A stretch of DNA of 64,000 bases from Acidobacteriota bacterium (GTDB lineage: Bacteria > Acidobacteriota > UBA6911 > RPQK01 > JAJDTT01), in contig CBDCJH010000002.1 in the NCBI GenBank assembly GCA_965217775.1, positions 3,488,001-3,552,000 on the forward strand, read 5' to 3'. Positions within the stretch are counted from its first letter, which is position 1, and each line of letters starts with the position of its first letter. The translations under genes and the position numbers were made by a program. This document shows positions 1 through 12,475 of this stretch, one piece after another. The notes under the pieces were generated by a model that saw only the letters and a program-made list of their open reading frames with translations, did not search any database and was not told where the DNA came from.

Positions 1-2
1 GG

Positions 3-377
3 CTGAAACTCACCGCGCCTATCAAGAAAGCCGTGCTCTCCGCCGTGTCCGAGCGAAACGCCGAAGCCGAGGTCTGCCGGGACCGGAAGGGCCGTCCTGA
101 GCCCGATCCAAAGCTCCGCGACACCGAGAACGTACCCCTCCTGGAGGATGTCGAGTCCTTCTTCGAGCGCGAGGTGAGGCCCCACGTTCCCGACGCCTGG
201 ATCGATTCGAAGCGCCGGGACCCCCAGGACGGAAAGGTCGGGCTCGTGGGCTACGAGATCAACTTCAATCGCTACTTCTACGAATACCGGCCACCCCGTC
301 CCTTGGAGGAGATCGAGGCCGACATCTGGCGGGTGGAGAAGGAGATCGCGGCGATGCTGCAAGAGATGCGCGTTTGA
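3..377 (+). CDS. hsdM: Type I restriction-modification methyltransferase subunit M, C-terminal part (5' end outside window)
   Basis: Frame open from position 3; C-terminal signature PEPDPKLRDTENVP...VGYEINFNRYFYEYRPPRPLEEIEADI typical of HsdM; lies upstream of hsdS/hsdR. Confidence 0.9.
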   Translation: MKLTAPIKKAVLSAVSERNAEAEVCRDRKGRPEPDPKLRDTENVPLLEDVESFFEREVRPHVPDAWIDSKRRDPQDGKVGLVGYEINFNRYFYEYRPPRPLEEIEADIWRVEKEIAAMLQEMRV

Positions 378-510
378 CGCCGGCCTATCTGCGGCGGCTG
401 CGGGTCAGGCAGACCGAGCGGAGACTGTCGCCGCTCCCCGTCAGTCTCCTTCATGCACTTCATGGCACTTGACACGCACTCGGCGCCACAAGTCTACCGT
501 GTCTACCTTC

Positions 511-539
511 TTGACACATACTTGGTGTGGCACTAACAT
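511..539 (+). promoter_or_regulatory. Sigma70-type promoter of the VapBC-like operon
   Basis: TTGACA (511-516), 17-bp spacer, TAACAT (534-539); ATG at 548 implies a very short or leaderless transcript. Confidence 0.6.
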
Positions 540-547
540 CACGGTCC

Positions 548-853
548 ATGGGAGACTCGCGGCGAGTCCAAGTGACGCTCGATGCGAGAGCGTACGCGGC
601 GGTGTCGCGGATTGCACGACGCGAAGGGATGAAGTTGGCCGCAGTCGTGCGGGAGGCCGTCGAGCAGTACTGCGTTCTGCCGGAGGCGCGGCAACGCCGA
701 TTGGAGGCCATCGACAGGCTGTACGCGACGGGTGCGGTCCCAGCACCGGAATCGCTGCCGGAGTGGGAGCGCCAGTACAGCCGGCGGAAGGTCGGCCTGG
801 CTACCGGTTGTCTCCACACCACCGAAGGTTCGGGGAGTCACGAGGACAGTTGA
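548..853 (+). CDS. Antitoxin, ribbon-helix-helix/CopG-like (VapB-type)
   Basis: RVQVTLDARAYAAVSRIARREGMKLAAVVREAVEQY strand-helix-helix pattern; stop overlaps the start of the downstream PIN gene. Confidence 0.7.
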   Translation: MGDSRRVQVTLDARAYAAVSRIARREGMKLAAVVREAVEQYCVLPEARQRRLEAIDRLYATGAVPAPESLPEWERQYSRRKVGLATGCLHTTEGSGSHEDS

Positions 854-1278
854 CGAGCGTGCGTGACTCGCTGTTTGTGGACGCCAACGTGTTCATGTAC
901 CTCGCGGGCAGTGACGCCCCGTACCGGGAGGCCTGCCGACGGGCTCTGCTGGCCGCGGCTGACAAGGGGGCCAAGCTGATTACCAGCACGGAAGTCCTGC
1001 AGGAGATCCTCCACTACCATGCCGCCCGACGGCGGCCCGATGACGCCCGAACCGTGTACCAGGCGGTGACAGACATCTGCGACGAGATCCTGCCGGTGAC
1101 GGAACACCAAACGGCCCGCGCGCTCGAACTGCTGGTGCGGCATCCCGGGTTGCCGGCGCGAGACGCCCTGCACGTCGCGACGATGGAGGCCCGCGGCGTG
1201 GAGCGGTTGCTGTCGGCAGACCGGCACTTCGATCAGATCGACACCGTCACGCGTGTCGACCCGCTCGCCCCCTCTTGA
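850..1278 (+). CDS. vapC: PIN-domain ribonuclease toxin (VapC family)
   Basis: FVDANVFMY, EVLQEIL, RDALHVA, LLSADRHFD acidic PIN motifs; TTG start at 850 overlaps antitoxin stop. Confidence 0.9.
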   Translation: MTSVRDSLFVDANVFMYLAGSDAPYREACRRALLAAADKGAKLITSTEVLQEILHYHAARRRPDDARTVYQAVTDICDEILPVTEHQTARALELLVRHPGLPARDALHVATMEARGVERLLSADRHFDQIDTVTRVDPLAPS

Positions 1279-1279
1279 T

Positions 1280-1354
1280 CCTCCGTCTGCCCTGGACGAC
1301 GAACAGGCGGAGAATGAGACCGTGGTCATACTGCAGGACACGACGGCGAGTTGA
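1280..1354 (+). pseudogene. Degenerate copy of the hsdM 3' end
   Basis: Translates PPSALDDEQAENETVVILQDTTAS* vs HsdM PPRPLEEIEADIWRVEKEIAAMLQEMRV*; 1304-1342 matches 330-368 at 28/39 nt by manual alignment. Confidence 0.65.
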
Positions 1355-1528
1355 TCTCCAGGCGCGAGCGCCTCGGGCACGCGAGATTCGAGCCAAGCGA
1401 TTAGAGTCAGCCTGAACCTGCAGATCTTCGACCGCCACGGATCTCCCGCTTGGGTCGCGCCGGTGCAGGGTGCGTTGCCACCAGACCTGTTCTTGGACTA
1501 CATTATGGTCATCGACAGGAGGTAGACC

Positions 1529-1804
1529 ATGTTCCTGTCAGACCGGATCAAGCCGATCAGTTACCTGAAGGCCCACGCATCCGAGGTGATCCGCACGCTC
1601 AAGGACCGGCAGGGCCCTCTGATCGTCACCCAGAACGGCGAAGCCAAGGCGGTCGTGCAAGACATCGACAGCTACGAGCGGATGCAGGAGAGCATCGCCC
1701 TGCTCAAGATGCTTGCGCTTGGCAACCGTCAGATTGAAGCGGGTCAGGTGCAGTCGGCCGCGCGGGTCATGGCGCGGATTCGGGAACGGCAACAGGCCGA
1801 TTGA
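1529..1804 (+). CDS. Phd/YefM family antitoxin
   Basis: IKPISYLKAHASEVI...PLIVTQNGEAKAVVQDIDSYE Phd pattern; GGAGG RBS; overlaps toxin start. Confidence 0.9.
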   Translation: MFLSDRIKPISYLKAHASEVIRTLKDRQGPLIVTQNGEAKAVVQDIDSYERMQESIALLKMLALGNRQIEAGQVQSAARVMARIRERQQAD

Positions 1805-2130
1805 TGCCGTTCGTGGTGCAGTTGACCGATGACGCCGCAGACGACTTGGAAGAGATAGTCGACTACTTCTCCCGTCAGGATGCGCCGAGGAGAGTGGAAC
1901 CTGTTCTCGAACGCATCGAGCAGGCCTTCCGAACGCTGTCCGCGTTCCCCGAACATGGCAGCTACCCGAGGGAGTTGTCGAACCTCGGAGTTCGGGAGTA
2001 CCGCCAACTGCTCTTCAAGCCATACCGGATGATCTACCGGGTGATTGACGACACCGTTTACGTGCTGGTCAACGCAGACGGGCGACGTGACATGCGGGGG
2101 TTGCTGGAACGGCGCCTGCTGGACGCTTAG
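1804..2130 (+). CDS. RelE/ParE family toxin
   Basis: VQLTDDAADDLEEIVDY...YRMIYRVIDDTVYVL..DGRRD RelE/ParE pattern; coupled to the Phd gene. Confidence 0.9.
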   Translation: MPFVVQLTDDAADDLEEIVDYFSRQDAPRRVEPVLERIEQAFRTLSAFPEHGSYPRELSNLGVREYRQLLFKPYRMIYRVIDDTVYVLVNADGRRDMRGLLERRLLDA

Positions 2131-2326
2131 CCCGAATTTCTCACCAAGTCGCTGAGTATATGAAGAAAACCCTCTTTTATTCATATACCTGCAGTTATTT
2201 CGTGACAGCATCCCAGGCACAGACTGCGCTGGGTACTCCCTCGATAGTTTTTCCGCCGTTTGCTGGCGCCTCGCTGAAGGGGATGGCGGGGTGACGGCTT
2301 CGACGGCCTGATCGAAGCAAGAACAA

Positions 2327-2367
2327 AATGTCGGCATTTGTATTTATGTGCCGACATTCTTTACTAT
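2327..2367 (+). promoter_or_regulatory. AbiE promoter with inverted-repeat operator
   Basis: Perfect IR AATGTCGGCA-N12-TGCCGACATT (2327-2358) overlapping TTGTAT (2338-2343); TACTAT at 2362-2367; ATG at 2374. Confidence 0.65.
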
Positions 2368-2373
2368 GCGTCC

Positions 2374-2976
2374 ATGGCTGAACTCACTGCGGCCGCGCTC
2401 GAAGCAGCCGGCATTGGAGCGTTTTTCCGGCCGCGAGATATTGAGACGCTCGGTGTCCCGTACCGTCGCCTCCGCGGACTCGTTGCGGCCGGCGCCGTGG
2501 AGAACCTCGGCGGCGGCCTTTATCGGCTGGCCGAGATTGAGCCGACCGAGCTGGAAACGGTCGCCATGGTGGCCGCTGCCGTCCCGCACGCCATCGTCTG
2601 CCTGATGACCGCGCTCCGCGTTTACGAAATCGGAACCGAATCCCCTCACGAAGTCTGGATCGCCATTAACCGCAAGGCGCGCCGCCCTGCCCGAGTGCCG
2701 GCGCAGATTCGCGTCGTCTGGTTCTCGAAGGCGATGCTCACCTACGGAGTTGTGCGCCGCCCGATGCTCGGCGTGCCGGTTGCCATCACATCGCCGGCCC
2801 GGACGGTCGTCGACTGCTTTCGGTACCGCAACAAACTCGGCCTCGACACCGCGCTGGAGGCGCTCCGGGACGTGCTGCGCCAACGGCTCGCCACCGTGGA
2901 TGAGATCATGCGCGCAGCCAGCGTCTGCCGGGCGCGCACGGTCCTGCAGCCCTACATGGAAGCAGTTCTGTCGTGA
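2374..2976 (+). CDS. abiEi: Type IV TA antitoxin / transcriptional regulator AbiEi (copy 1)
   Basis: N-terminal wHTH with GLYRL; CLMTAL..EIGT..PHEVWIAI; ITSPARTVVDCFRYRNKLGLD.A.EAL. Confidence 0.9.
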   Translation: MAELTAAALEAAGIGAFFRPRDIETLGVPYRRLRGLVAAGAVENLGGGLYRLAEIEPTELETVAMVAAAVPHAIVCLMTALRVYEIGTESPHEVWIAINRKARRPARVPAQIRVVWFSKAMLTYGVVRRPMLGVPVAITSPARTVVDCFRYRNKLGLDTALEALRDVLRQRLATVDEIMRAASVCRARTVLQPYMEAVLS

Positions 2977-3110
2977 CGAGACGCCATCTCAAGAACGTCG
3001 CGGCGTCCGTCCGCGACCGGCTGCTCGCTCGCAGTCGCGAGACCGGTGAGGAGGCCGAGGCTAACATCCTGGAGAAGGAAATTGTGGCCCTGTTTTCCGA
3101 GATAACCGGC
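2973..3110 (+). pseudogene. Truncated abiEii 5' end fused to a degenerate hsdM 3' end
   Basis: MTRRHLKNVAASVRDRLLARSRETGE resembles the AbiEii N-terminus (cf. 3843: DIPASIRQRLLNLAR); then EEAEANILEKEIVALFSEITG resembles the HsdM C-terminus. Confidence 0.7.
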
Positions 3111-3189
3111 CAACGACTGATAATGTCGTCAAATATTAATGGTTGCCAACATTTTGACCTAGACGGCTCACACAGGTTATGTTCATGGC

Positions 3190-3846
3190 ATGCATGAAGC
3201 GAAAGGCAACCAACTGCACACATCTGCCGGCATTTCAGTACGATATTCCGCGACAGGCAACTCTAGCCTGCAGCGGCTCGGCTCCAAAACATTCTTCCGT
3301 TCGCGCGACGCGGCCGCTCTGGGCGTCCACTCACGTGCGCTACGGCGCCTGGTGGATGACGGTTCGATCGAGCGAGTGGCGCGCGGGCTCTACCGCCTCG
3401 CCCACGTGGAACCGACAGAGCACTACACTCGAGCCGCCGTCTGCGCCCGGGTCCCAAGCGCCGTTGTCTGCCTGCTGACGGCCCTGAGCGTCTACGAGAT
3501 CGGCACGCAGCTCCCACACGAGGTCTGGATCGCCATTCCGCACAAGGCCCGCACGCCCCGCCTGCCCGGGCTGCCGGTCCGGGTGGTGCGATTCTCCGGG
3601 GTCAGGCTGCGCTACGGCGTCGTGAACACGACCTTCGAGGGGGTCCCCGTTCGTATCACGAGCCCGGCCCGCACCGTGGTGGACTGCTTCCGCTTCCGGC
3701 GGCTGGTCGGCAAGGACGTCGCGATCGAGGCGCTACGCGACGCCCTGCGCGACCGCAAGGCGAGCGTCGACCAGATCTGGCGGGCCGCCGAGGTGTGCCG
3801 CGCAAAGTCGCTCGTCGGGCCGGCACTCGATGTGCTGACAGCATGA
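3190..3846 (+). CDS. abiEi: Type IV TA antitoxin AbiEi (copy 2)
   Basis: Paralog of 2374-2976 (ERVARGLYRL, CLLTAL, PHEVWIAIP, ITSPARTVVDCFRFR); start uncertain. Confidence 0.9.
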   Translation: MHEAKGNQLHTSAGISVRYSATGNSSLQRLGSKTFFRSRDAAALGVHSRALRRLVDDGSIERVARGLYRLAHVEPTEHYTRAAVCARVPSAVVCLLTALSVYEIGTQLPHEVWIAIPHKARTPRLPGLPVRVVRFSGVRLRYGVVNTTFEGVPVRITSPARTVVDCFRFRRLVGKDVAIEALRDALRDRKASVDQIWRAAEVCRAKSLVGPALDVLTA

Positions 3847-4814
3847 CTCCTCGAAAGGCGATCCGGGACATACCCGCATCCATCCGGCAGCGCTTGCTGA
3901 ACCTCGCCCGCCGGCAAGTGACCGATTTCGAGCGCGTGCTCCAACGCTACGCGGTCGAGCGTTTCCTCTACCGCCTCTCCGCCTCGGACGAGGTGGACCG
4001 CTTCACGCTGAAGGGAGCCGCGCTTCTCCGCGTGTGGACCGGACAGGAACTGCGCCCCACGCGGGATATCGACTTCCTGGCCCGCGGCGCCCGAGATGAA
4101 GCCGCCATTCGCACCGCCCTGCGGGCCGTCTGCCGCATTTCCTGTCGAGAGGACGGCGTCGTCTTCGACCCGGCCACGATCTCAATCACGAGCATCCGCA
4201 TCGATCAGCCGGACGGCGGCTGCCGGGCGCGGATCCGGGGCAGCCTTGGGCGGATCCGGCTCGCGGTCCCGGTCGACATCGGCTTCGGCGATGTCGTCAC
4301 CCTGGGCCGCAGGGAGGAGAACTACCCCACACTGCTCGACCTGCCCGCTCCCCGACTCTGGACATACCCGCGCGAGACGCTGGTCGCCGAGAAGTTCCAC
4401 GCGATGGCCAGTCTGGGTGACAGGAACTCGCGCGTGAAGGACCTCTGGGACATCGCCTGCCTCGCGCGCCGCTTCAGGTTCGACGGCGACATTCTGCGCA
4501 CCGCCATCGCGGAGACGTTCCGCCACCGCGGGACGCCGTTCACGGGCGGACGGCCGACGGCGCTGCTGGCCGGCTACTACAGCGACCACGAGGCCCCCGG
4601 GCGCGGGCAACGCTGGCGCGAGATGCGACGGCAGATCGGGACCGACATCGATGGGCCGGATCGCCTCGTGGACGTCGGCGAGGAGCTGCGCCGTTTCCTG
4701 GGACCGCTCTGCGACAGCCTGATCGCGGAGAGCCCGTTCACCCAGGCCTGGCCCGCTGGTGGACCGTGGCGGCCGGGGATTCGGGCACGGACGGGAGGCG
4801 GGGGCGGTGACTGA
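3843..4814 (+). CDS. abiEii: Type IV TA toxin, AbiEii nucleotidyltransferase
   Basis: LKGAALL, RPTRDIDFL, AEKFHA, NSRVKDLWDI motifs; ATGA overlap with abiEi. Confidence 0.92.
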   Translation: MTPRKAIRDIPASIRQRLLNLARRQVTDFERVLQRYAVERFLYRLSASDEVDRFTLKGAALLRVWTGQELRPTRDIDFLARGARDEAAIRTALRAVCRISCREDGVVFDPATISITSIRIDQPDGGCRARIRGSLGRIRLAVPVDIGFGDVVTLGRREENYPTLLDLPAPRLWTYPRETLVAEKFHAMASLGDRNSRVKDLWDIACLARRFRFDGDILRTAIAETFRHRGTPFTGGRPTALLAGYYSDHEAPGRGQRWREMRRQIGTDIDGPDRLVDVGEELRRFLGPLCDSLIAESPFTQAWPAGGPWRPGIRARTGGGGGD

Positions 4815-6207
4815 GGCGACCGACCGCGTGACCGAAGGAAATGATCGGATCGACGAACTTCAACGACGGCCCTTTCCTTCCTACTCGAAGTACAGGGACT
4901 CCGGCGTCGAGTGGCTAGGCGAGATTCCGGCACATTGGAACCCAAAGCCATTTAAGGCGTCTCTGGTTCGCAATGACAGCGGTGTTTGGGGTGAGGACTT
5001 CGATGACGACGGAACCATCGTCTTGCGGTCTACCGACCAAACCAAGCGGGGCAGGTGGAGGATTACAGAACCAGCTCGAAGGCGACTCAGCGCTCGCGAA
5101 GCGACCTACGCCAAGCTTTTGTGGGGAGATCTGCTCGTCACGAAGTCGAGTGGAAGCGTACACCATATCGGGAAGACATCCGTTGTCGATGAGGCAATTG
5201 CAGCCCTGAACTGCTGCTACTCCAACTTCATGCAGCGCCTGAGGGTTTCGACCGAACACGTTCCCCGGTTCTTCTGGTATTTCATGAACTGTCCACCTGC
5301 GCGCGAGCAGCTTATTTTCCTCTCATCGACCACAACCGGGCTCGGGAATCTGAACGGCTCTATTATCGGAGCCATTCGCATACCGATGGCACCGGCAGAA
5401 GAGCAGCGCCTAATTGCCGAATTCCTCGACCGCGAGACGGCGAAGATTGATGCGCTGGTGGCGGGGAAGGAGCGGCTGATCGAGTTGCTTCAGGAGAAAC
5501 GCATCGCCCTCATCACGGTTGCCGTCACCCGGGGTCTCGATCCGAACATCCCCATGAAGGACTCCGGCGTCGAGTGGCTGGGCGCGATCCCGACACACTG
5601 GAAGCTTGAGCCGCTCAAACGCCTTCTAAGCCGAAGTGACTATGGAATATCGGAGAGCTTGAAAGTAGGAGGTGATATCCGAGTTCTAACTATGGCGCAC
5701 ATTCAAGATGGCGAGGTTGTATTGCCCCGTGATGGCAGCATCAATGAAATCGACCGGTCAATGATGCTTGAGTCCGGCGACCTTCTGTTCAACAGAACCA
5801 ACAGCCGTGAACTCGTAGGTAAGGTCGGTATATTTCGTGGCGACCACGATGATTGCGTGACCTTTGCATCGTACCTTGTAAGGTTAACCCCGCGTCAGCA
5901 CGTCGAACCCGAATGGCTTAACTACCTGCTCAACTCCACTGGCGTTCTTGGAATGGCGCGAAGCACGGCATTACTTAGTGTTAACCAAGCCAATCTCAAT
6001 CCAACCAAGCACCAGCAATTCATCATGCCTGTGCCCGCACCTTCTGAACAGCGGACCATCGCAGGTTTCCTACGCGCTGAGACCGCGAAGATCGATTCCC
6101 ACATCGTCAAGATCCGGCAGGCAATTAACTACCTCCACGAATTTCGCACCGCTCTTATCTCCGCGGCGGTCACCGGCAAGATCGACGTCCGGGAGGGAGC
6201 GCGATGA
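4807..6207 (+). CDS. hsdS: Type I restriction-modification specificity subunit S
   Basis: Two DSGVEWLG.IP.HW conserved repeats, two lower-GC TRDs, EQR.IA.FL..ETAKID helices, ends ISAAVTGKIDVR. Confidence 0.95.
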   Translation: MTEATDRVTEGNDRIDELQRRPFPSYSKYRDSGVEWLGEIPAHWNPKPFKASLVRNDSGVWGEDFDDDGTIVLRSTDQTKRGRWRITEPARRRLSAREATYAKLLWGDLLVTKSSGSVHHIGKTSVVDEAIAALNCCYSNFMQRLRVSTEHVPRFFWYFMNCPPAREQLIFLSSTTTGLGNLNGSIIGAIRIPMAPAEEQRLIAEFLDRETAKIDALVAGKERLIELLQEKRIALITVAVTRGLDPNIPMKDSGVEWLGAIPTHWKLEPLKRLLSRSDYGISESLKVGGDIRVLTMAHIQDGEVVLPRDGSINEIDRSMMLESGDLLFNRTNSRELVGKVGIFRGDHDDCVTFASYLVRLTPRQHVEPEWLNYLLNSTGVLGMARSTALLSVNQANLNPTKHQQFIMPVPAPSEQRTIAGFLRAETAKIDSHIVKIRQAINYLHEFRTALISAAVTGKIDVREGAR

Positions 6208-9200
6208 GCCCGGAAATTTCTGAGCGAGCTTTCGAAGAGGCTATCGAGTGCGCGCTGCTCCGGCACGGGCCAGACGCGTGCCCCGGCGATAGGACGACGG
6301 TGCGGGAATCGCCGCCGAGATACGGCGCCGAGCCGTTGCCGGGCGGCTACCACAGACGGCGTGCAGAGGACTACGACCGCGGGCTCTGCCTAATTCGGGC
6401 CGACGTTCTCGACTTCCTCCTGGCCACGCAGCCGAAAGAGTGGGCGAAGCTAAAGCAGCACCACGGCGCTGACGTGAAGCCGCGTTTCCTCAGCCGACTC
6501 TCCCGCGAGATCGCCCGTCGGGGAGCGCTCGACGTGCTGCGCAACGGCGTTAAGGACTCGGGCTGCAAGTTCCGGCTCGCTTACTTCCGGCCAGCAAGCG
6601 GTCTCAACGAGGAATTGCAGCGCCTGCACGGCGCCAACCTCTTCGCGGTCGTCCGCCAGCTCCGCTTCAGCGCGAAGAACCAACAGAGCGTCGATCTCGC
6701 GCTCTTCCTCAACGGCATTCCCATCTTCACGGCCGAGCTCAAGAACCCGCTCAACGGGCAGGACGTGGAGGACGCCATTCGCCAGTACAAGCACGACCGG
6801 GATCCGCGCGAGCCCCTCTTCGCGTACGGACGCTGCCTCGCCCACTTCGCCGTGGACCCGGAACAGGTGTTCGTGACCACGCAACTCATGGGGCCCAAGA
6901 CCCGGTTCCTGCCCTTCAACCAGGGGCGTTTCGGCGGCGCGGGAAACCCGCCGGTCCCGCCCACCCGTTCCGGCTTCCCCACCGCCTACCTGTGGGAGCG
7001 GATCTGGGCCCGCGACAGCGTCCTCGATCTCGTCCGCCAGTTCATCCACGAAGTCGAAGTGGAGGACGATCGCGGGCGCAGAACGGGAAAGCGTTTCCTG
7101 ATCTTCCCGCGCTACCAGCAACTCGACTGCGTCCGCCGTCTCGTGCGCCACGCGCGGAACCACGGCGCCGGCGAACGCTACCTGATCCAGCATTCGGCCG
7201 GCAGCGGTAAGAGCTTCACCATCGCCTGGCTCGCCCATCGGCTCTCGGTGCTGCATGACCACGAGGACCGGCGCGTCTTCGACTCGGTGGTGGTGGTGAC
7301 CGACCGGCGCGTGCTCGACCGCCAGCTCCAGCGGACCATCCGGCAGTTCGAGCAGACCCTGGGCGTGGTGGAGAACATCGATCAGACCTCCCGACAGCTC
7401 CGCCAGGCGCTGGAGGCGGGCCGGACCATCATCGTCACCACCTTGCAGAAGTTTCCGGTCATCGCCGAGGAGATCGGGCAGCTTCCCGGCAAGCGGTTCG
7501 CCGTGATCGTGGACGAGGCGCACTCGTCGCAGTCGGGAGAGAGCTCCAGGAGCCTCAAGGCGGTCCTCGCCGCGGGAAGCCTGGAGGAGGCCGAGCACAC
7601 GGAAGCAGGCGCCGAAACCCCCGAAGAGGAACTCGAAGAGCGCGTCCTGGAAGAGATCCGCCTCCGCGGGCGGCTGCCGAACCTCTCGACGTTCGCCTTC
7701 ACGGCGACTCCGAAGCCCAAGACCCTCGAGCTTTTCGGCCGGAAGCAGCCGGACGGGAAGTTCACACCCTTCCACCTCTACAGCATGCGCCAGGCGATCG
7801 AGGAGGGATTCATTCTCGACGTGCTCCGGAACTACACCACCTACAAGGCCTACTGGCGCCTGCTGAAGAAGATCGAGGACGACCCGCGGTTCGACAAGCG
7901 GAAGGCGGAACACCTCCTCAAGACCTTCGTCGAACTGCACCCCCACGCTATCCGCGAGAAGATCGCCATCTGCGTGGAGCATTTCGCCGCTCAGGCCGCG
8001 GGCGAGATCGGCGGGCGGGCCAAGGCCATGATCGTGACCCGCTCGCGTCTGCACACGGTGCGCACCAGGCTTGCCCTGGATCGCTACCTGCAGGAAAAGG
8101 GCCACCCGTGGAAGGCGCTCGTCGCGTTCTCGGGAACGGTGAAGGACCGCGGGAAGTCCTACACGGAGTCCGGCATGAACTCGGCCGGACAGGAGCGGGT
8201 GATCGGCGAGCGGCAGACGGCCGCCGAGTTCGAGAAGCCCGAGTACCGCTTCCTGGTGGTCGCCAACAAGTTCCAGACCGGCTTCGATCAGCCGCTGCTC
8301 CACACCATGTACGTGGACAAGAAACTGGGCGGCGTGAACGCGGTCCAGACGCTGTCCCGCCTGAACCGCACGCACGCCGGCAAGCGGGGAACGATGGTGC
8401 TCGACTTCGCCAACGAAGCCGAGGAGATCAAGAAGGCCTTCGAGCCTTACTACGAGACCACCCTCCTCTCGGAGGGGACCGATCCCAACCTCCTCTACGA
8501 GGTTCAGGGCAGGCTGCTCGACTTCGGCGTGTTCGGCGAGGACGACGTCGAGAACTTCGCGCGAGCGTTTTTCGATCCGAAGGCGGGCCAGGACAAACTC
8601 TACGCGGCGCTGGAACCGGCGCGGCAACGCTTCACCGAGCTTGCGCCGGACGAGGGACGCGAATTCCGCAGCCAGCTCACCGACTACGCGCGCCTCTACG
8701 CTTTCCTCTCCCAGGTGCTTACGTTCGCCGACACCGACCTGGAGAAACTCTACGTCTTCGCCCGGCATCTCCGCCGCCTGCTGTCGATGGGCCGGGAGGC
8801 GCTGCCCCTCGAGATCCGGGAGAGCATCGACATGGAGTCCTTCCGCATCCAACGGACGAGCCGCGGCCGGATCGCCCTCGAACGGCAGGTGCGGCCGCTG
8901 GATCCCGTAGGCAGCAAGACTCGCCGCGGTCCCGGCGGTGACGAGTTGGAGGCCCTCTCGCGAATCATCGAGGCCTTGAACGATCGCTTCGGCTTGAACC
9001 TGGGCGACGAGCACCGGATCACGCTGGAACAGATCCGATCCGCCCTCGACCGGGACGCGGGCCTCGACGCCAGCGCCCGGGTGAACACCCGCGAGAACGT
9101 GCGGCTGACCTTCGATCCCAAAGTCGAGGACAAGATCCAGGAAATCGTCGACACCAACTTCGATCTCTACAGGCGGATCACCGACGACCCCGACTTCGGC

Positions 9201-9740
9201 CAGGCGCTCAAGAACTTCCTCTTCGACGACTACATCACGCGGCACCAGCGAGCGGAGGAACTGCTCAAACACCAGGAGTCGAAGACGCTGGAGTTCAAGT
9301 CGAGCCTGCGCTGGAACCTGAAGGAGGATCGCAAGGACGTCAAGCAGGTCACCCATGCGGCGCTCAAGACCGTCGCCGCCTTCCTCAACACCGAGGGCGG
9401 CGACCTCCTGATCGGCGTGGACGACGACCGCAAGGTGCTGGGCATCGCCCACGACCGTCTGGAGACCGACGACAAGTTCATGCTGCACCTGGCCCAGGTG
9501 GTGCGAAACGGCCTCGGCGACCGGGCCGGCACCTGCATCGATCCCAAGACCCAGATCGTGGAGGGGAAGACCGTCTGCCTCGTGAGCTGCCAGCGAAGTC
9601 CCGAGCCGGTCTACCTGCGGTGGAAGGGACTGGAAAAGGCAAAGGAGGGCGATCTCTACGTCCGGAGCGGCCCCGGCACGGTTCGACTCGGCAAGAAGGA
9701 TGCCGAGAAGTACGTGGCCACCCGGTTCGCCTCGAATTGA
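6204..9740 (+). CDS. hsdR: Type I restriction endonuclease subunit R with C-terminal AlbA_2/Schlafen domain
   Basis: Nuclease motif DLALFLNGIPIFTAELKN, Walker A HSAGSGKS, DEAH, FTATP, QTGFD, QTLSRLNR; last ~160 aa carry ESKTLEFKSS...TVAAFLNTEGGDLLIGVDDD. Confidence 0.95.
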   Translation: MSPEISERAFEEAIECALLRHGPDACPGDRTTVRESPPRYGAEPLPGGYHRRRAEDYDRGLCLIRADVLDFLLATQPKEWAKLKQHHGADVKPRFLSRLSREIARRGALDVLRNGVKDSGCKFRLAYFRPASGLNEELQRLHGANLFAVVRQLRFSAKNQQSVDLALFLNGIPIFTAELKNPLNGQDVEDAIRQYKHDRDPREPLFAYGRCLAHFAVDPEQVFVTTQLMGPKTRFLPFNQGRFGGAGNPPVPPTRSGFPTAYLWERIWARDSVLDLVRQFIHEVEVEDDRGRRTGKRFLIFPRYQQLDCVRRLVRHARNHGAGERYLIQHSAGSGKSFTIAWLAHRLSVLHDHEDRRVFDSVVVVTDRRVLDRQLQRTIRQFEQTLGVVENIDQTSRQLRQALEAGRTIIVTTLQKFPVIAEEIGQLPGKRFAVIVDEAHSSQSGESSRSLKAVLAAGSLEEAEHTEAGAETPEEELEERVLEEIRLRGRLPNLSTFAFTATPKPKTLELFGRKQPDGKFTPFHLYSMRQAIEEGFILDVLRNYTTYKAYWRLLKKIEDDPRFDKRKAEHLLKTFVELHPHAIREKIAICVEHFAAQAAGEIGGRAKAMIVTRSRLHTVRTRLALDRYLQEKGHPWKALVAFSGTVKDRGKSYTESGMNSAGQERVIGERQTAAEFEKPEYRFLVVANKFQTGFDQPLLHTMYVDKKLGGVNAVQTLSRLNRTHAGKRGTMVLDFANEAEEIKKAFEPYYETTLLSEGTDPNLLYEVQGRLLDFGVFGEDDVENFARAFFDPKAGQDKLYAALEPARQRFTELAPDEGREFRSQLTDYARLYAFLSQVLTFADTDLEKLYVFARHLRRLLSMGREALPLEIRESIDMESFRIQRTSRGRIALERQVRPLDPVGSKTRRGPGGDELEALSRIIEALNDRFGLNLGDEHRITLEQIRSALDRDAGLDASARVNTRENVRLTFDPKVEDKIQEIVDTNFDLYRRITDDPDFGQALKNFLFDDYITRHQRAEELLKHQESKTLEFKSSLRWNLKEDRKDVKQVTHAALKTVAAFLNTEGGDLLIGVDDDRKVLGIAHDRLETDDKFMLHLAQVVRNGLGDRAGTCIDPKTQIVEGKTVCLVSCQRSPEPVYLRWKGLEKAKEGDLYVRSGPGTVRLGKKDAEKYVATRFASN

Positions 9741-9988
9741 GACCCGCCCGACTGACCTTGCCCCTTGGGCCGCATTTCCCACTGGGGGGCGCGATCCCCG
9801 GACTCCTGTCGGCCAGGGCGAGCCGACCCTCCCGACCCAGGCAACCGCCGGCCCCAGAACGTATCCTCGGGCAGGCAACGACATTGCCGGACCGGACGCG
9901 CCGGAATGGCCCGGGCACGGCCAGAAGGAGTGGATGCAAACTCGATGACCGCCACCACCCAGGACGGGCCTGCCAGAGCAAAGGACAG

Positions 9989-10054
9989 TTGTGGAACGCC
10001 TGTCGGAATGCTGTTGACAGGGTGTGGGCCGCCTGTTGGAAAGCTGTGAATCAG
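9989..10054. repeat. Six phased 11-bp degenerate repeats (nTGT core)
   Basis: ttgtggaacgc/ctgtcggaatg/ctgttgacagg/gtgtgggccgc/ctgttggaaag/ctgtgaatcag. Confidence 0.6.
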
Positions 10055-10138
10055 GGTTCCGTCAACTCAATCGTTTCCGAATTCCAGGCCGACTCGACCG
10101 TCCCGCCACTAACAGGGCAAGTCGTGTAGAATGCAACG

Positions 10139-12475
10139 GTGCCCCGTCGAAAGAAACCCGCCGCTCGAAGAAAACCCTCCTCCCGCAAGAAGCCGTCTCC
10201 TCGCCGCCGCCGATTTCTGGTCTGGGTGACGTGCGCCGTTCTGATCATCGCAGCGGCCGTGACCGGATCCCTCACCGGCCTGGTCCTCACCTGGGGAATC
10301 GAACTGGCTCAAGTCGGTGAGCTGCAGCAGACCCGGCCGGATGTCATCTCCGAGGTCTATTCGGCGGACGGGCGGGTTCTGGGCATTTTCGGGGTGGAGA
10401 AGAGGCAGATCGTCACCTACGACAAGATTCCGGACACGGTGAAGAACACGATCCTGGCGGCCGAAGACTCGGACTTCTTCCGGCACGCCGGCATCGACTT
10501 CCGCCGCCTCATCTACACCATCTTCCGGAACATCGTCTACGGAGAACGAAAAGGCGCCTCCACCATCACCATGCAGTTGAGCAAACTGCTGCTGACCAGT
10601 CCCGAGGTGACGATCAAGCGCAAGATTCAGGACATGATCTTCGCCATCCAGATCGAGCGCACCCTGTCCAAGGAGCAGATCCTCACCCGCTACGTCAACC
10701 AGATGTACATGGGGCACGGGAGATACGGACTGGCGGCCGCTTCCGAGTTCTACTTCCAGAAAAACATGAACGAACTGGAGTGGCACGAGGCGGCCCTGCT
10801 GGCAGGCCTGATTCGGACGCCCGCCAGGTATTCTCCCCTGAATCACCCGGACTTGGCCGTGAAGCGAAGAAACTGGGTTCTGGAACGAACTTACGATGAG
10901 GGCTTCATCGACGCGGAGAGGCTGCGAACCAATCTGCAGGAGCCACTGGGTCTGAAGACCTGGGACCGGCAACAGACGCCGGCCCCCTACTTCGTGGAGT
11001 GGGTTCGCCAATATCTGGAGAAACGGTTCCCCGGCGGGGAGATTCACACGAGAGGTCTGAAGATTTACACGACTCTGGACTACGAACTTCAGACGGCGGC
11101 CGAAAGGGCGCTTCGTGACGGATTGAAGGCGTTCGACAAGAAGCGGCGGAGATGGCGCGGCGCCAAAGATAACATCCTCGAGGCCGGGAAAGAGCTGGAG
11201 GGGTACTGGCGTTCCGATTGGGACACCATTTTTTCCCCCGGTCAGATGGTCCACGGCCTCGTTCTGCAATCGGACGAGCGTACGGCAGAGGTGAAGGTCG
11301 GCAGCTACCGGGCCACGGTCCGGCCCAACCACGTGGACTGGACCGGAAAGAAGCGATTGGACCAGGTCCTCAAGGCGGGTGACGTCTGCGCCTTTACCCT
11401 GGAGAGCATCAACCGTGAGGAACGGACCGTCGAAGTGAAGCTGGACCGGGTTCCCGAAGTTCAGGGGTCGCTGATGGCCATCGAGAGCGGGACCGGCGCC
11501 ATTCGAGCCATGGTGGGGGGGTTCGACTTTCGATACAGCAAGTTCAATCGAGCCACCCAGGCTCTGAGACAACCCGGTTCCGTGTTCAAGCCCTTCACCT
11601 ACGTGGCCGCGGTGGAAAGCGGCTATGCGCCCGAGGACACGGTTCTGGACAGCCCGGTGGAGTTTCGGGACGGTCTGGGCCGCCCTTACCGTCCGGTGAA
11701 CGCGGACGGAAAATACAAGGGGCTCATCCCCATCCGTCAGGCCTTGGCGCAGTCCCGAAACGTCCCCACGCTGCGTCTGGCCAACGCGATGGGGGTCGAG
11801 AGAGTCGTCGAAGTGGCGCACCGGTTCGGAATCCAACGGGACATCCCACTCTATCTGCCCACCGCTCTGGGAGCGGGCGAGGTCACCCTGGAGGAGATCA
11901 CGTCCGCGTTCACCGCCTTCCCCAACGGCGGGGTCCGGGTCCATCCCCATTTCATCGACCGGGTGGAAGACGCGAACGGTGTTCTTCTGGAGCGCCATGA
12001 GGCCGGCGTGGACGAGGTCGTCACCCGGGAGACCGCCGAGGCGATGCTGGACCTGTTGAGAAACGTGGTCCTGAGAGGAACCGCCCGCAAGGCCCGGAGT
12101 CTGCCGATTCCGGTCGCCGGGAAGACGGGCACCACCAACGACTGTACCGATAGCTGGTTCGTGGGATTCAGCAAGCTGCTGACGGCCGGCGTCTGGGTGG
12201 GGCACGACACCAAGATTTCGATGGGTGAAAGGGTCTATGGCAGCACCCTGGCCCTTCCCATCTGGATCGATTTCATGAAGGAGACCGTGGGCAAGACTCC
12301 GCCGGGAAACTTCGGGACGGAACTTTACGCCGCCCGTCGAGCCGCTCCAGCTCCTGCACCGGTGGCAGAGGCGGACCCCGATGAGGGAGAGGCCGAACAG
12401 CAGGAGAAACCCGCCGTGAAACCGAAACCGCTACCGAACATCATGGTGGAGGACATCCCCGCACCTTCTTTCTGA
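10139..12475 (+). CDS. mrcA: Class A penicillin-binding protein (PBP1A family)
   Basis: TM anchor; transglycosylase motifs EDSDFFRHAG, GASTITMQL; transpeptidase SVFK, SRN, KTG. Confidence 0.93.
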   Translation: MPRRKKPAARRKPSSRKKPSPRRRRFLVWVTCAVLIIAAAVTGSLTGLVLTWGIELAQVGELQQTRPDVISEVYSADGRVLGIFGVEKRQIVTYDKIPDTVKNTILAAEDSDFFRHAGIDFRRLIYTIFRNIVYGERKGASTITMQLSKLLLTSPEVTIKRKIQDMIFAIQIERTLSKEQILTRYVNQMYMGHGRYGLAAASEFYFQKNMNELEWHEAALLAGLIRTPARYSPLNHPDLAVKRRNWVLERTYDEGFIDAERLRTNLQEPLGLKTWDRQQTPAPYFVEWVRQYLEKRFPGGEIHTRGLKIYTTLDYELQTAAERALRDGLKAFDKKRRRWRGAKDNILEAGKELEGYWRSDWDTIFSPGQMVHGLVLQSDERTAEVKVGSYRATVRPNHVDWTGKKRLDQVLKAGDVCAFTLESINREERTVEVKLDRVPEVQGSLMAIESGTGAIRAMVGGFDFRYSKFNRATQALRQPGSVFKPFTYVAAVESGYAPEDTVLDSPVEFRDGLGRPYRPVNADGKYKGLIPIRQALAQSRNVPTLRLANAMGVERVVEVAHRFGIQRDIPLYLPTALGAGEVTLEEITSAFTAFPNGGVRVHPHFIDRVEDANGVLLERHEAGVDEVVTRETAEAMLDLLRNVVLRGTARKARSLPIPVAGKTGTTNDCTDSWFVGFSKLLTAGVWVGHDTKISMGERVYGSTLALPIWIDFMKETVGKTPPGNFGTELYAARRAAPAPAPVAEADPDEGEAEQQEKPAVKPKPLPNIMVEDIPAPSF

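Follow-up and report, generated by a model that had tools for sequence, protein, structure and literature searches.

Introduction

Defence by bacterial Schlafen (Slfn) proteins and their links to restriction-modification systems are already known from work published in 2025-2026. As presented in one such study, the prokaryotic Schlafen (pSlfn) defence proteins RorSlfn5 (Slfn plus an Ig-like sensor) and EcoSlfn7 (DUF262-Slfn) carry a single AlbA_2/Slfn domain with an E-x4-(E/D)-x-K motif and a fused partner in a defence context (Taboada et al., Nat Microbiol 2026, PMC13056530). Here we describe a protein that shares these features and in which, unlike in RorSlfn5 and EcoSlfn7, the Slfn domain stands C-terminal to an entire type I restriction subunit with its nuclease and motor. 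Its gene, hsdR-Slfn (6204..9740, plus strand, 1178 aa), was defined by its open reading frame (ORF) and by Pfam, NCBIfam and PADLOC family matches. It is located in a 64,000-nucleotide stretch of an Acidobacteriota genome (GCA_965217775.1, contig CBDCJH010000002.1, positions 3,488,001 to 3,552,000), which we call the window and in whose coordinates positions are given. What is new is the type I restriction motor as a pSlfn partner.

In RorSlfn5, the Ig-like domain binds a T5 protein, after which the enzyme cuts tRNAs in the anticodon arm, and EcoSlfn7 reduces T7 plating ~540-fold (PMC13056530); Cash and SLFN-pAgo are reported as further tRNA-cleaving Slfn effectors. A link to restriction-modification systems or other nucleases is reported for more than half of the Slfn homologues associated with defence. 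Published fusions of a Slfn domain to type I or II restriction-modification components include 'Schlatpase'-HsdS (10.64898/2026.05.29.728809), TRD.TRD.pSlfn (13 proteins) and NADP_Rossmann.TRD.pSlfn (supplement of PMC13056530), and the methyltransferase-Slfn fusions of cluster 3 in PMC13462974. In these, Slfn is joined to a specificity or methylase part, or a GHKL ATPase is present; in the fusion described here, the partner is the restriction/motor subunit, and a GHKL ATPase is absent. The 55 domain compositions in the statistics sheet of PMC13056530 include no PDDEXK + P-loop + pSlfn entry. In the accessible supplements of that paper, 'HsdR' occurs only as a neighbouring gene, and the pSlfn15 (P-loop) proteins among the rows listed are ~440-520 aa long. 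We found no description of an HsdR-Slfn fusion in the full-text literature, a coverage that excludes subscription journals and some supplements.

The other precedent is PrrC, which together with EcoprrI (type Ic) physically couples a translation-targeting RNase to a type I enzyme and was proposed to act as a second defence once restriction is neutralised (PMC3710099). PrrC stands as a protein of its own and combines an ABC-ATPase with a HEPN nuclease; here an RNase-type domain of an unrelated fold, Slfn, is covalently fused to HsdR. A PrrC-type ABC-ATPase with C-terminal HEPN (Rx4-6H) gave no Pfam or NCBIfam match in the hsdR-Slfn protein, and the resemblance to PrrC, an analogy, would be functional only. 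HEPN RNases fused to the helicase or nuclease subunits of restriction-modification systems, and not to the methylase, have also been reported, with a PrrC-like backup role proposed (Anantharaman et al. 2013, PMC3710099). They share the design principle of HsdR-Slfn and use a different RNase superfamily. In the accessible text of that paper, Schlafen appears solely as the partner of one HEPN family and HsdR is not mentioned.

HsdR ends in a Schlafen/AlbA_2 domain

The first-pass annotation of this DNA, which was based on the letters alone, had claimed that the hsdR frame runs ~160 aa past the normal HsdR tail and ends in an AlbA_2/Schlafen signature. When the protein was searched against 1.84 billion representatives, most of the best 150 HsdR relatives were ~980-1020 aa long and their alignments ended at about query residue 1008-1018. 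Because most relatives stop there, the last ~160 residues are a true addition to a complete HsdR. The strings quoted in the annotation were all located in this tail: ESKTLEFK at residues 1025-1032 (9276-9299), KTVAAFLNTEGGDLLIGVDDD at residues 1055-1075, with its end GVDDD at 1071-1075, and LYVRSG at 1151-1156. The whole domain comprises residues 1017-1178 (9252..9737, plus strand). A search with profile hidden Markov models (HMMs), which the annotation had proposed, bore out the family assignment: SLFN_AlbA_2 (PF04326) matched residues 1025-1161 (Pfam core 9276-9686) at 68.6 bits (cut-off 25.3; E 8.7e-19), covering positions 1-116 of the 118-position profile.

The tail was also compared with all chains of the Protein Data Bank (PDB) by phmmer. 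At E ≤ 0.6 only Schlafens were found, and they made up 13 of the 15 matches listed at E ≤ 10. Among them were pig SLFN11 (7fex, the best at 2.5e-6), SLFN13 (5yd0, 4.8e-5) and human SLFN11 (7zel, 7.4e-4), and the alignment pairs ESKTLEFK with ESQLVEFK of SLFN11 and IGVDDD with IGVDDK.

Residues 986-1178 were modelled with AlphaFold2 from a 24-row alignment, giving a mean pLDDT of 90.6 and a pTM of 0.84. Foldseek returned 28 PDB matches for this model at E ≤ 0.001, with E-values of 4e-7 to 1e-4 for AlbA_2, Schlafen and SAMD9 structures, and every match listed at E ≤ 0.02 was an AlbA_2, SAMD9 or Schlafen chain. In VIA-align, the model aligned best with DIP2311 (3lmm; Z 13.9, root-mean-square deviation 3.5, 150 aligned), followed by SAMD9 with DNA (7ksp, Z 12.2), the SAMD9 tRNase domain (9o0d, Z 11.9) and SLFN14 (Z 10.5). 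The structural comparison with SLFN11 and SLFN13 suggested in the annotation gave Z 9.7 for SLFN13 residues 182-326 and Z 9.6 for SLFN11 residues 188-327, in both cases the catalytic C-lobe. The last Schlafen chain listed scored Z 6.7 and the first unrelated fold Z 5.1. The part of the Schlafen core matched by the model is thus the C-lobe, which bears the Schlafen active site. The tail is confirmed as an AlbA_2/Schlafen domain by HMM, by sequence and by predicted fold, with matches that go far beyond chance.

The SLFN11, SLFN13 and SLFN14 nucleases and the SAMD9 tRNase share with the tail the predicted C-lobe fold (Z 9.3-12.2 across SAMD9 and SLFN5/11/13/14) and the E-E-K residues. HsdR-Slfn also resembles SLFN11 in that a nuclease-type domain is linked to a DNA-sensing, helicase-type ATPase. 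The order differs: here an SF2 type I motor precedes the nuclease, whereas mammalian Schlafens have an SF1 helicase C-terminal to it.

The putative active site is conserved

The catalytic-type motif E1025-x4-E1030-x-K1032 (ESKTLEFK; 9276..9299, plus strand) aligns with ESQLVEFK of SLFN11, and D1074 (9423..9425, plus strand) aligns with SLFN11 D252, the third carboxylate. SLFN11 requires E209, E214 and K216, and the D252A change does not inactivate it (PMC9482658). From this alignment, E1025, E1030 and K1032 are the likely counterparts of E209, E214 and K216, with D1074 opposite D252; the numbering offset of 7zel is one that we infer.

Among 251 homologues covering the motif, E1025 was retained in 248, E1030 in 248, K1032 in 249 and D1074 in 250, and E, E and K were all present in 246. 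As 240 of the 251 are close relatives and not independent, the more telling set consists of the 11 representatives at 25-64% identity, all of which retain E, E and K. The five homologues with a deviating motif were mostly fragments. The retention of the acidic E..EFK residues noted in the first-pass annotation therefore extends to diverse HsdR fusions. Over the 66 loci in which both parts are complete, identity to the query was 84.8% for the tail and 84.0% for the HsdR core, and in 41 of them the tail was the better conserved part.

The fusion is widespread

A survey of HsdR-AlbA_2 fusions, which had also been proposed in the first-pass annotation, found them to be widespread and conserved. 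Residues 1000-1178 were searched against 5.8 billion proteins (lengths 647-2062 aa); among 1936 candidates, 1404 clusters matched at E ≤ 0.001. In all 120 clusters listed, PF04326 is combined with the HsdR domain PF22679, and the identity is 83-95%. A search of shorter proteins listed mostly fragments of the hsdR-Slfn gene, under names such as 'type I restriction enzyme R subunit', 'RNA-binding domain-containing protein' and 'predicted HTH transcriptional regulator'.

When each species was represented by a single genome, 154 loci could be confirmed, of which 80 were kept. Most of the kept loci are titled Acidobacteriota. The remaining 17 carry other titles (Gammaproteobacteria/Pseudomonadales, Dehalococcoidia, Spirochaetota, Deltaproteobacteria, Thermodesulfobacteriota, Gemmatimonadetes), and there the tail is 71-86% identical. 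In an even sample of the phylum, 30 of 401 genomes matched the tail at E ≤ 1e-20, including all five other genomes sampled from the window's genus. At 25 places the identity was at least 65%, and 18 of these lie in open frames of 1184-1362 aa. HsdR-Slfn is a real, widespread and conserved fusion.

The surroundings of the gene were compared in 68 related loci with ~10 kb of upstream sequence. The tail was contiguous with the HsdR core in 64 of them; 61 had hsdS upstream, and in 52 hsdM was found no more than 10 kb away; AbiEi was present in 51 and an AbiEii piece of at least 200 aa in 39, so that the AbiE cargo is frequent and not obligatory. A penicillin-binding protein gene followed downstream in only 6 of the 68. 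Because these features recur across the 68 loci, we conclude that hsdM, AbiE cargo, hsdS and hsdR-Slfn move as a module. The operon with its cargo recurs at ~84% identity in several phyla.

Some individual proteins deviate from the common architecture. In P0125 (368 aa; L019 ~9476-10576), from a complete genome of the same genus, hsdR is cut by in-frame deletions that leave residues 1-99, a short piece at ~486-510 and residues 929-1177; its Slfn tail is intact, at 93% identity. The cultured Acanthopleuribacter pedis encodes an HsdR-Slfn of 1329 aa (P0247, WP_207860327.1) with an extra Peptidase_S24 (LexA-like) domain after the tail, and P0302, an HsdR of the same subfamily, has an N-terminal Effector-associated domain 7. 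The window's own genome contains 13 PF04326 matches. Three of them stand in a row at G000:C2:544121-547286, beside a 1208-aa frame with a weak N6_Mtase match (549590-549928), and another, at 6055125, is ~9 kb from a further hsdM at 6045197.

The HsdR core and its operon

The HsdR part appears from its sequence to be intact and functional-looking, with nuclease and motor motifs in place. An N-terminal PD-(D/E)xK nuclease region (6630..6887, plus strand) corresponds to residues 143-228 (Pfam HSDR_N, E 1.1e-16), with motif III E-L-K at residues 178-180 within the string AELK (177-180). The SF2 translocase motor follows (7107..8408, plus strand; SWI2_SNF2 E 1.8e-27, ResIII E 9.3e-15, T1R_D3-like E 2.4e-10). 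Its SWI2_SNF2/ResIII/DEAD matches cover residues 302-545 and its T1R_D3-like match residues 678-735; GSGKS is found at 333-337 and DEAH at 437-440. The helical C-terminal HsdR region (8454..9251, plus strand) spans about residues 751-1016; relatives lacking the Slfn domain align up to ~1008-1018, and the model places helices at 987-1013. PADLOC REase_I matches the protein with E 7.6e-36. The nuclease, the SF2 motor, the helical C-terminal domain and the hsdM/hsdS operon are those of classical HsdR systems such as EcoR124I and EcoKI. The differences are the ~160 extra C-terminal residues, a toxin-antitoxin/AbiE cargo between hsdM and hsdS, and a TIGR00348 score below the cut-off. A 1144-aa ORF on the opposite strand (6450..9884, minus) was rejected as a gene; all family matches lie on the plus strand, and it is taken as a shadow frame of the 65% G+C gene.

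The locus is a complete type I restriction-modification operon in the order hsdM, toxin-antitoxin/AbiE cargo, hsdS, hsdR-Slfn. The ATG of hsdR shares ATGA (6204-6207) with the hsdS stop and is preceded by a purine-rich stretch. The specificity gene hsdS (4759..6207, plus strand) was identified by PADLOC Specificity_I (E 1.4e-107 over residues 40-479) and Pfam Methylase_S; because the matches begin at about residue 40, its listed GTG start is probably too early. On the same strand, 5.8 kb upstream of hsdR, the window opens with the 3' end of hsdM (3..377, plus strand). This 704-aa gene starts left of the window (L003:1039-3153) and matches N6_Mtase (E 8.5e-54) and HsdM_N (E 2.1e-22). The N6_Mtase match in HsdM stops at residue 433, and the ~270 C-terminal residues have no Pfam match; HsdM proteins of this long form recur in 37 related loci with ~82% identity. 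Downstream of hsdR lies a class A penicillin-binding protein gene (10139..12475). A promoter/terminator scan found three terminator-like sites in 1-10400, where 6.7 were expected, and none after hsdR.

The 4.4 kb interval between hsdM and hsdS (469-4814) contains three or four toxin-antitoxin-type units, all on the plus strand. It begins with a PIN-domain protein (469..1278; Pfam PIN E 2e-16 over residues 136-258 of a 269-aa frame), whose true start may be later in the frame, followed by a Phd/YefM antitoxin (1529..1804; PhdYeFM_antitox E 9.4e-16) and a ParE toxin (1801..2130; ParE_toxin E 1.5e-15). A solitary AbiEi-like gene comes next (2338..2976; PADLOC AbiEi E 2.8e-62, with a weak Pfam AbiEi_4 match), and then AbiEi (3190..3846; PADLOC AbiEi E 1.6e-69) with the AbiEii nucleotidyltransferase toxin (3795..4814; PADLOC AbiEii E 3.4e-86, Pfam AbiEii E 1.9e-41). 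Same-genus loci retain the PIN and AbiE parts of the cargo, with the PIN homologue at the same position. Cargo of this kind is common in type I operons; a literature search for AbiE inside type I operons gave nothing useful. Between the 1.1 kb left of hsdM and window positions 9600-10400, a search for a flanking target duplication found only matches of up to 11 bp. MenT relatives of AbiEii modify tRNA, and the operon may thus hold two tRNA-directed effectors, the Slfn tail and AbiEii.

Gain, loss and exchange of the tail

To place the fusion among type I enzymes, an HsdR core tree was built with FastTree from the query and 128 representatives of at least 950 aa, excluding fragments below 950 aa and one row with a short core; FastTree support values are purely local, and of the 126 inner forks 40 could not be resolved. 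A Pfam-confirmed Slfn tail is present in 8 of the 128 representatives, scattered over the tree. In another five the tail is of a different type, with a treble-clef zinc finger at its end, and three have a third kind. The four tail states require 10 changes on the core tree, and P0244 (59% identity) and P0245, whose cores are closest to that of the query, have no Slfn tail.

The treble-clef-type tail belongs to a sister HsdR clade (P0335, P0347, P0358, P0366 and P0383; support 100), where it adds ~200-300 aa after about residue 900-965. The treble-clef zinc finger PF23477 ends the tails of P0335 and P0366, the remainder being without a family match; a Pfam search of the P0366 tail at E ≤ 10 found the zinc finger alone. 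The third tail follows residue ~966-1009 in P0328, P0362 and P0393 and contains RNDNAH, the Rx4H form of the HEPN RNase motif. For P0328, a Pfam search of the tail at E ≤ 10 gave no match and phmmer against the PDB nothing meaningful. An Atlas search of the same tail gave scores of at most 0.79, some of them to HEPN/RNase LS and Abi_C clusters, which are leads only, and for the P0362 tail it gave no usable match. An assignment of the third tail to HEPN is suggested by the RNDNAH string and is not established; if it is correct, the same HsdR slot would house two unrelated RNase folds.

Outside HsdR, relatives of the tail were fetched from the same phylum at 35-42% identity, and nine of ten loci were scanned (L098 was dropped because of an internal stop). 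Four encode GmrSD_N/DUF262 proteins with a C-terminal Slfn domain (L100, L101, L102, L105); these are the nearest non-HsdR relatives of the tail and share the architecture of the experimentally active EcoSlfn7. C-terminal Slfn domains were also found in a 1322-aa Eco57I/MmeI-type methylase (L104:3680-7645, minus strand), in a Sigma70_r4/HARE-HTH protein (L106) and, as an odd pairing in a same-genus genome, behind the Ion_trans/Ion_trans_2 channel domain (E 2.5e-36) of a 409-aa protein (L103:3691-4917, minus strand). Of the other two, one has an unassigned N-terminal part and one is a further HsdR truncated where its contig ends. Among plasmids, tblastn gave nine records at 31-38% identity, with annotations that include DUF262 (two), N-6 DNA methylase (one), ATP-binding protein (three) and RNA-binding domain-containing protein (one).

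A tree of 25 Slfn domains was calculated with IQ-TREE, using a small outgroup sample. The domains from HsdR and from the relatives are separated from three other AlbA_2 domains of the window's genome by a long branch (93/91). Those borne by HsdR do not form one group: five changes are needed, of which at least two are forced by well-supported branches, and one clade (99/98) unites six HsdR with two GmrSD_N and two unassigned rows. This pattern fits a C-terminal Slfn cassette that has been exchanged among restriction-type proteins.

Discussion

We consider it somewhat more probable than otherwise that the tail functions as a latent RNase, probably one that acts on tRNA, and that the state of the restriction complex governs it; RNase activity, tRNA substrate, latency and trigger are all properties that we infer. 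In this model, the HsdR part would work as usual. It would dock on the HsdM2-HsdS core, its SF2 motor would pull DNA from unmethylated target sites, and its PD-ExK nuclease would cut. The tail would be a single-lobe pSlfn nuclease with an intact E-x4-E-x-K metal-binding/catalytic motif, acting as a latent, metal-dependent RNase, most likely on tRNA. Its activity would depend on how the restriction complex that tethers it is assembled or which conformation that complex adopts. Once gated open, it would halt translation and so back up DNA restriction with growth arrest or abortive infection.

The tail is attached to the very HsdR region for which a role in docking on the HsdM-HsdS core has been implicated in EcoR124I (PMC2878639). 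Two triggers can be envisaged, which would be about equally likely if the tail is an RNase. A phage anti-restriction factor could disable the complex and thereby release the tail, as in a PrrC- or PARIS-like guard; firing upon inhibition was the option raised in the first-pass annotation. Alternatively, the complex could meet unmodified DNA, translocate, and stall or collide, so that two Slfn tails are brought together. We know of no Stp-like trigger for HsdR-Slfn. Assembly is a feature of known Slfn proteins, which form a hexamer (RorSlfn5, PMC13056530), tetramers and filaments (RzAgo) or a dimer (SLFN11, PMC9482658).

Several points weigh against this reading. The tail is a single lobe of ~160 residues, whereas SLFN11 has a two-lobed, horseshoe-shaped tRNA-binding core. 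No Cys or His is invariant in the 24-sequence alignment, so a conserved zinc site like that of SLFN11 (H285, C287, C321 and C322; PMC9482658) is missing; with one lobe and no such residues, the two-lobed, zinc-bearing core of eukaryotic Schlafens is absent. The E-x4-(E/D)-x-K motif is described as near-universal in prokaryotic AlbA_2 domains (PMC13056530), and because almost all of them keep it, the motif points to a likely active site and not to a substrate. According to the same source, only two of seven pSlfn systems tested conferred defence in E. coli. The function of HsdR-Slfn is argued by analogy with other Slfn proteins. At the level of the host protein, TIGR00348 (hsdR) scores 219.2 bits, below its cut-off of 284.55, despite an E-value of 1.1e-64 over residues 143-751, which we read as the sign of a divergent HsdR subfamily and not of a non-member. 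Moreover, 112 of the 128 HsdR representatives have none of the three labelled C-terminal additions, and the Slfn tail appears to have been repeatedly gained or lost. Finally, the closest solved folds include a DNA-bound SAMD9 domain and DIP2311, whose function is unknown, and relatives are named 'putative DNA binding domain-containing protein' at the National Center for Biotechnology Information (NCBI).

The last two points lead to an alternative that we regard as unlikely, namely that the tail serves as an accessory that binds nucleic acids, which the first-pass annotation had named as its own alternative, or as a nuclease directed at DNA. It would aid translocation, cleavage or target discrimination without acting on RNA. 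In this view, it would hold or sense double-stranded, single-stranded or branched DNA beside the methylase core and might add a second nick. Besides the SAMD9 AlbA_2 fold crystallised with DNA (7ksp) and the NCBI name, the SLFN5-N entry 7cux, titled 'ssRNA cleaving and DNA binding', is consistent with such a role, as is the attachment of the domain to DNA enzymes of three restriction types. GmrSD normally has the DNA nuclease DUF1524 at the place where the GmrSD_N proteins found here bear Slfn. However, the PD-ExK nuclease of HsdR is intact, so that no DNA nuclease is missing, and the same SAMD9 domain has also been deposited as a tRNase (9o0d). Mere binding would not require the retention of E, E and K in nearly all homologues, and the Slfn nucleases characterised in the papers cited, as far as their accessible text goes, cleave RNA or tRNA. 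That the tail is instead a sensor or regulator, which binds RNA, a nucleotide or a phage protein and switches restriction by HsdR (e.g. in restriction alleviation), or which mediates oligomerisation of the complex, seems to us distinctly improbable. The oligomerisation of RorSlfn5, RzAgo and SLFN11 would agree with it, and the other, non-nuclease-looking tails that sister HsdR proteins bear at the same position, such as the one with a terminal treble-clef zinc finger, suggest a general accessory slot; yet the catalytic triad is conserved, and in the published cases, within the available text, Slfn is the effector and its fused partner the sensor.

We give very little credence to the idea that the tail is a now functionless passenger, left behind when domains were shuffled in defence islands and on its way to loss. 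The patchy occurrence in HsdR representatives and in genomes of the phylum is what it would predict, as are truncated or deleted copies such as the in-frame deletion derivative P0125 and the five homologues with changed motif residues. Against this, the tail is as conserved as the motor over the 66 complete loci, keeps 71-93% identity across records titled as different phyla, and has an invariant motif in divergent representatives.

Returning to the latent RNase, a broader view, which we put forward tentatively and hold to be rather less probable than not, would be that a dedicated C-terminal Schlafen RNase clade has been swapped, as a cassette, among restriction enzymes of several types, namely HsdR (type I), GmrSD_N/DUF262 proteins (type IV-like) and MmeI-like enzymes (type IIG/L). 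This would make two-pronged machines that combine DNA cutting with a tRNA cleavage switched by stalling, collision or inhibition, and thus restriction and abortive infection in one. At the locus described here, the Slfn tail would then act beside AbiEii, which is a second candidate for a tRNA-targeting toxin.

Annotation as 'DEAD/DEAH box helicase' or 'DNA/RNA-binding domain-containing protein' makes the HsdR-Slfn class invisible in genome annotation. Should the restriction complex indeed gate an RNase in the tail, the fusion would offer a direct, covalent solution to the long-standing problem of how restriction failure or overload is coupled to abortive infection. To our knowledge, PrrC is so far the single classical example of such coupling. 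As the fusion fixes stoichiometry and geometry, the coupling would be easier to dissect, by structural work and mutagenesis, than in a two-protein system. If this holds true, the type I restriction motor would join the list of Schlafen 'sensors', in parallel to the DNA-binding helicase of SLFN11 that controls a tRNase.

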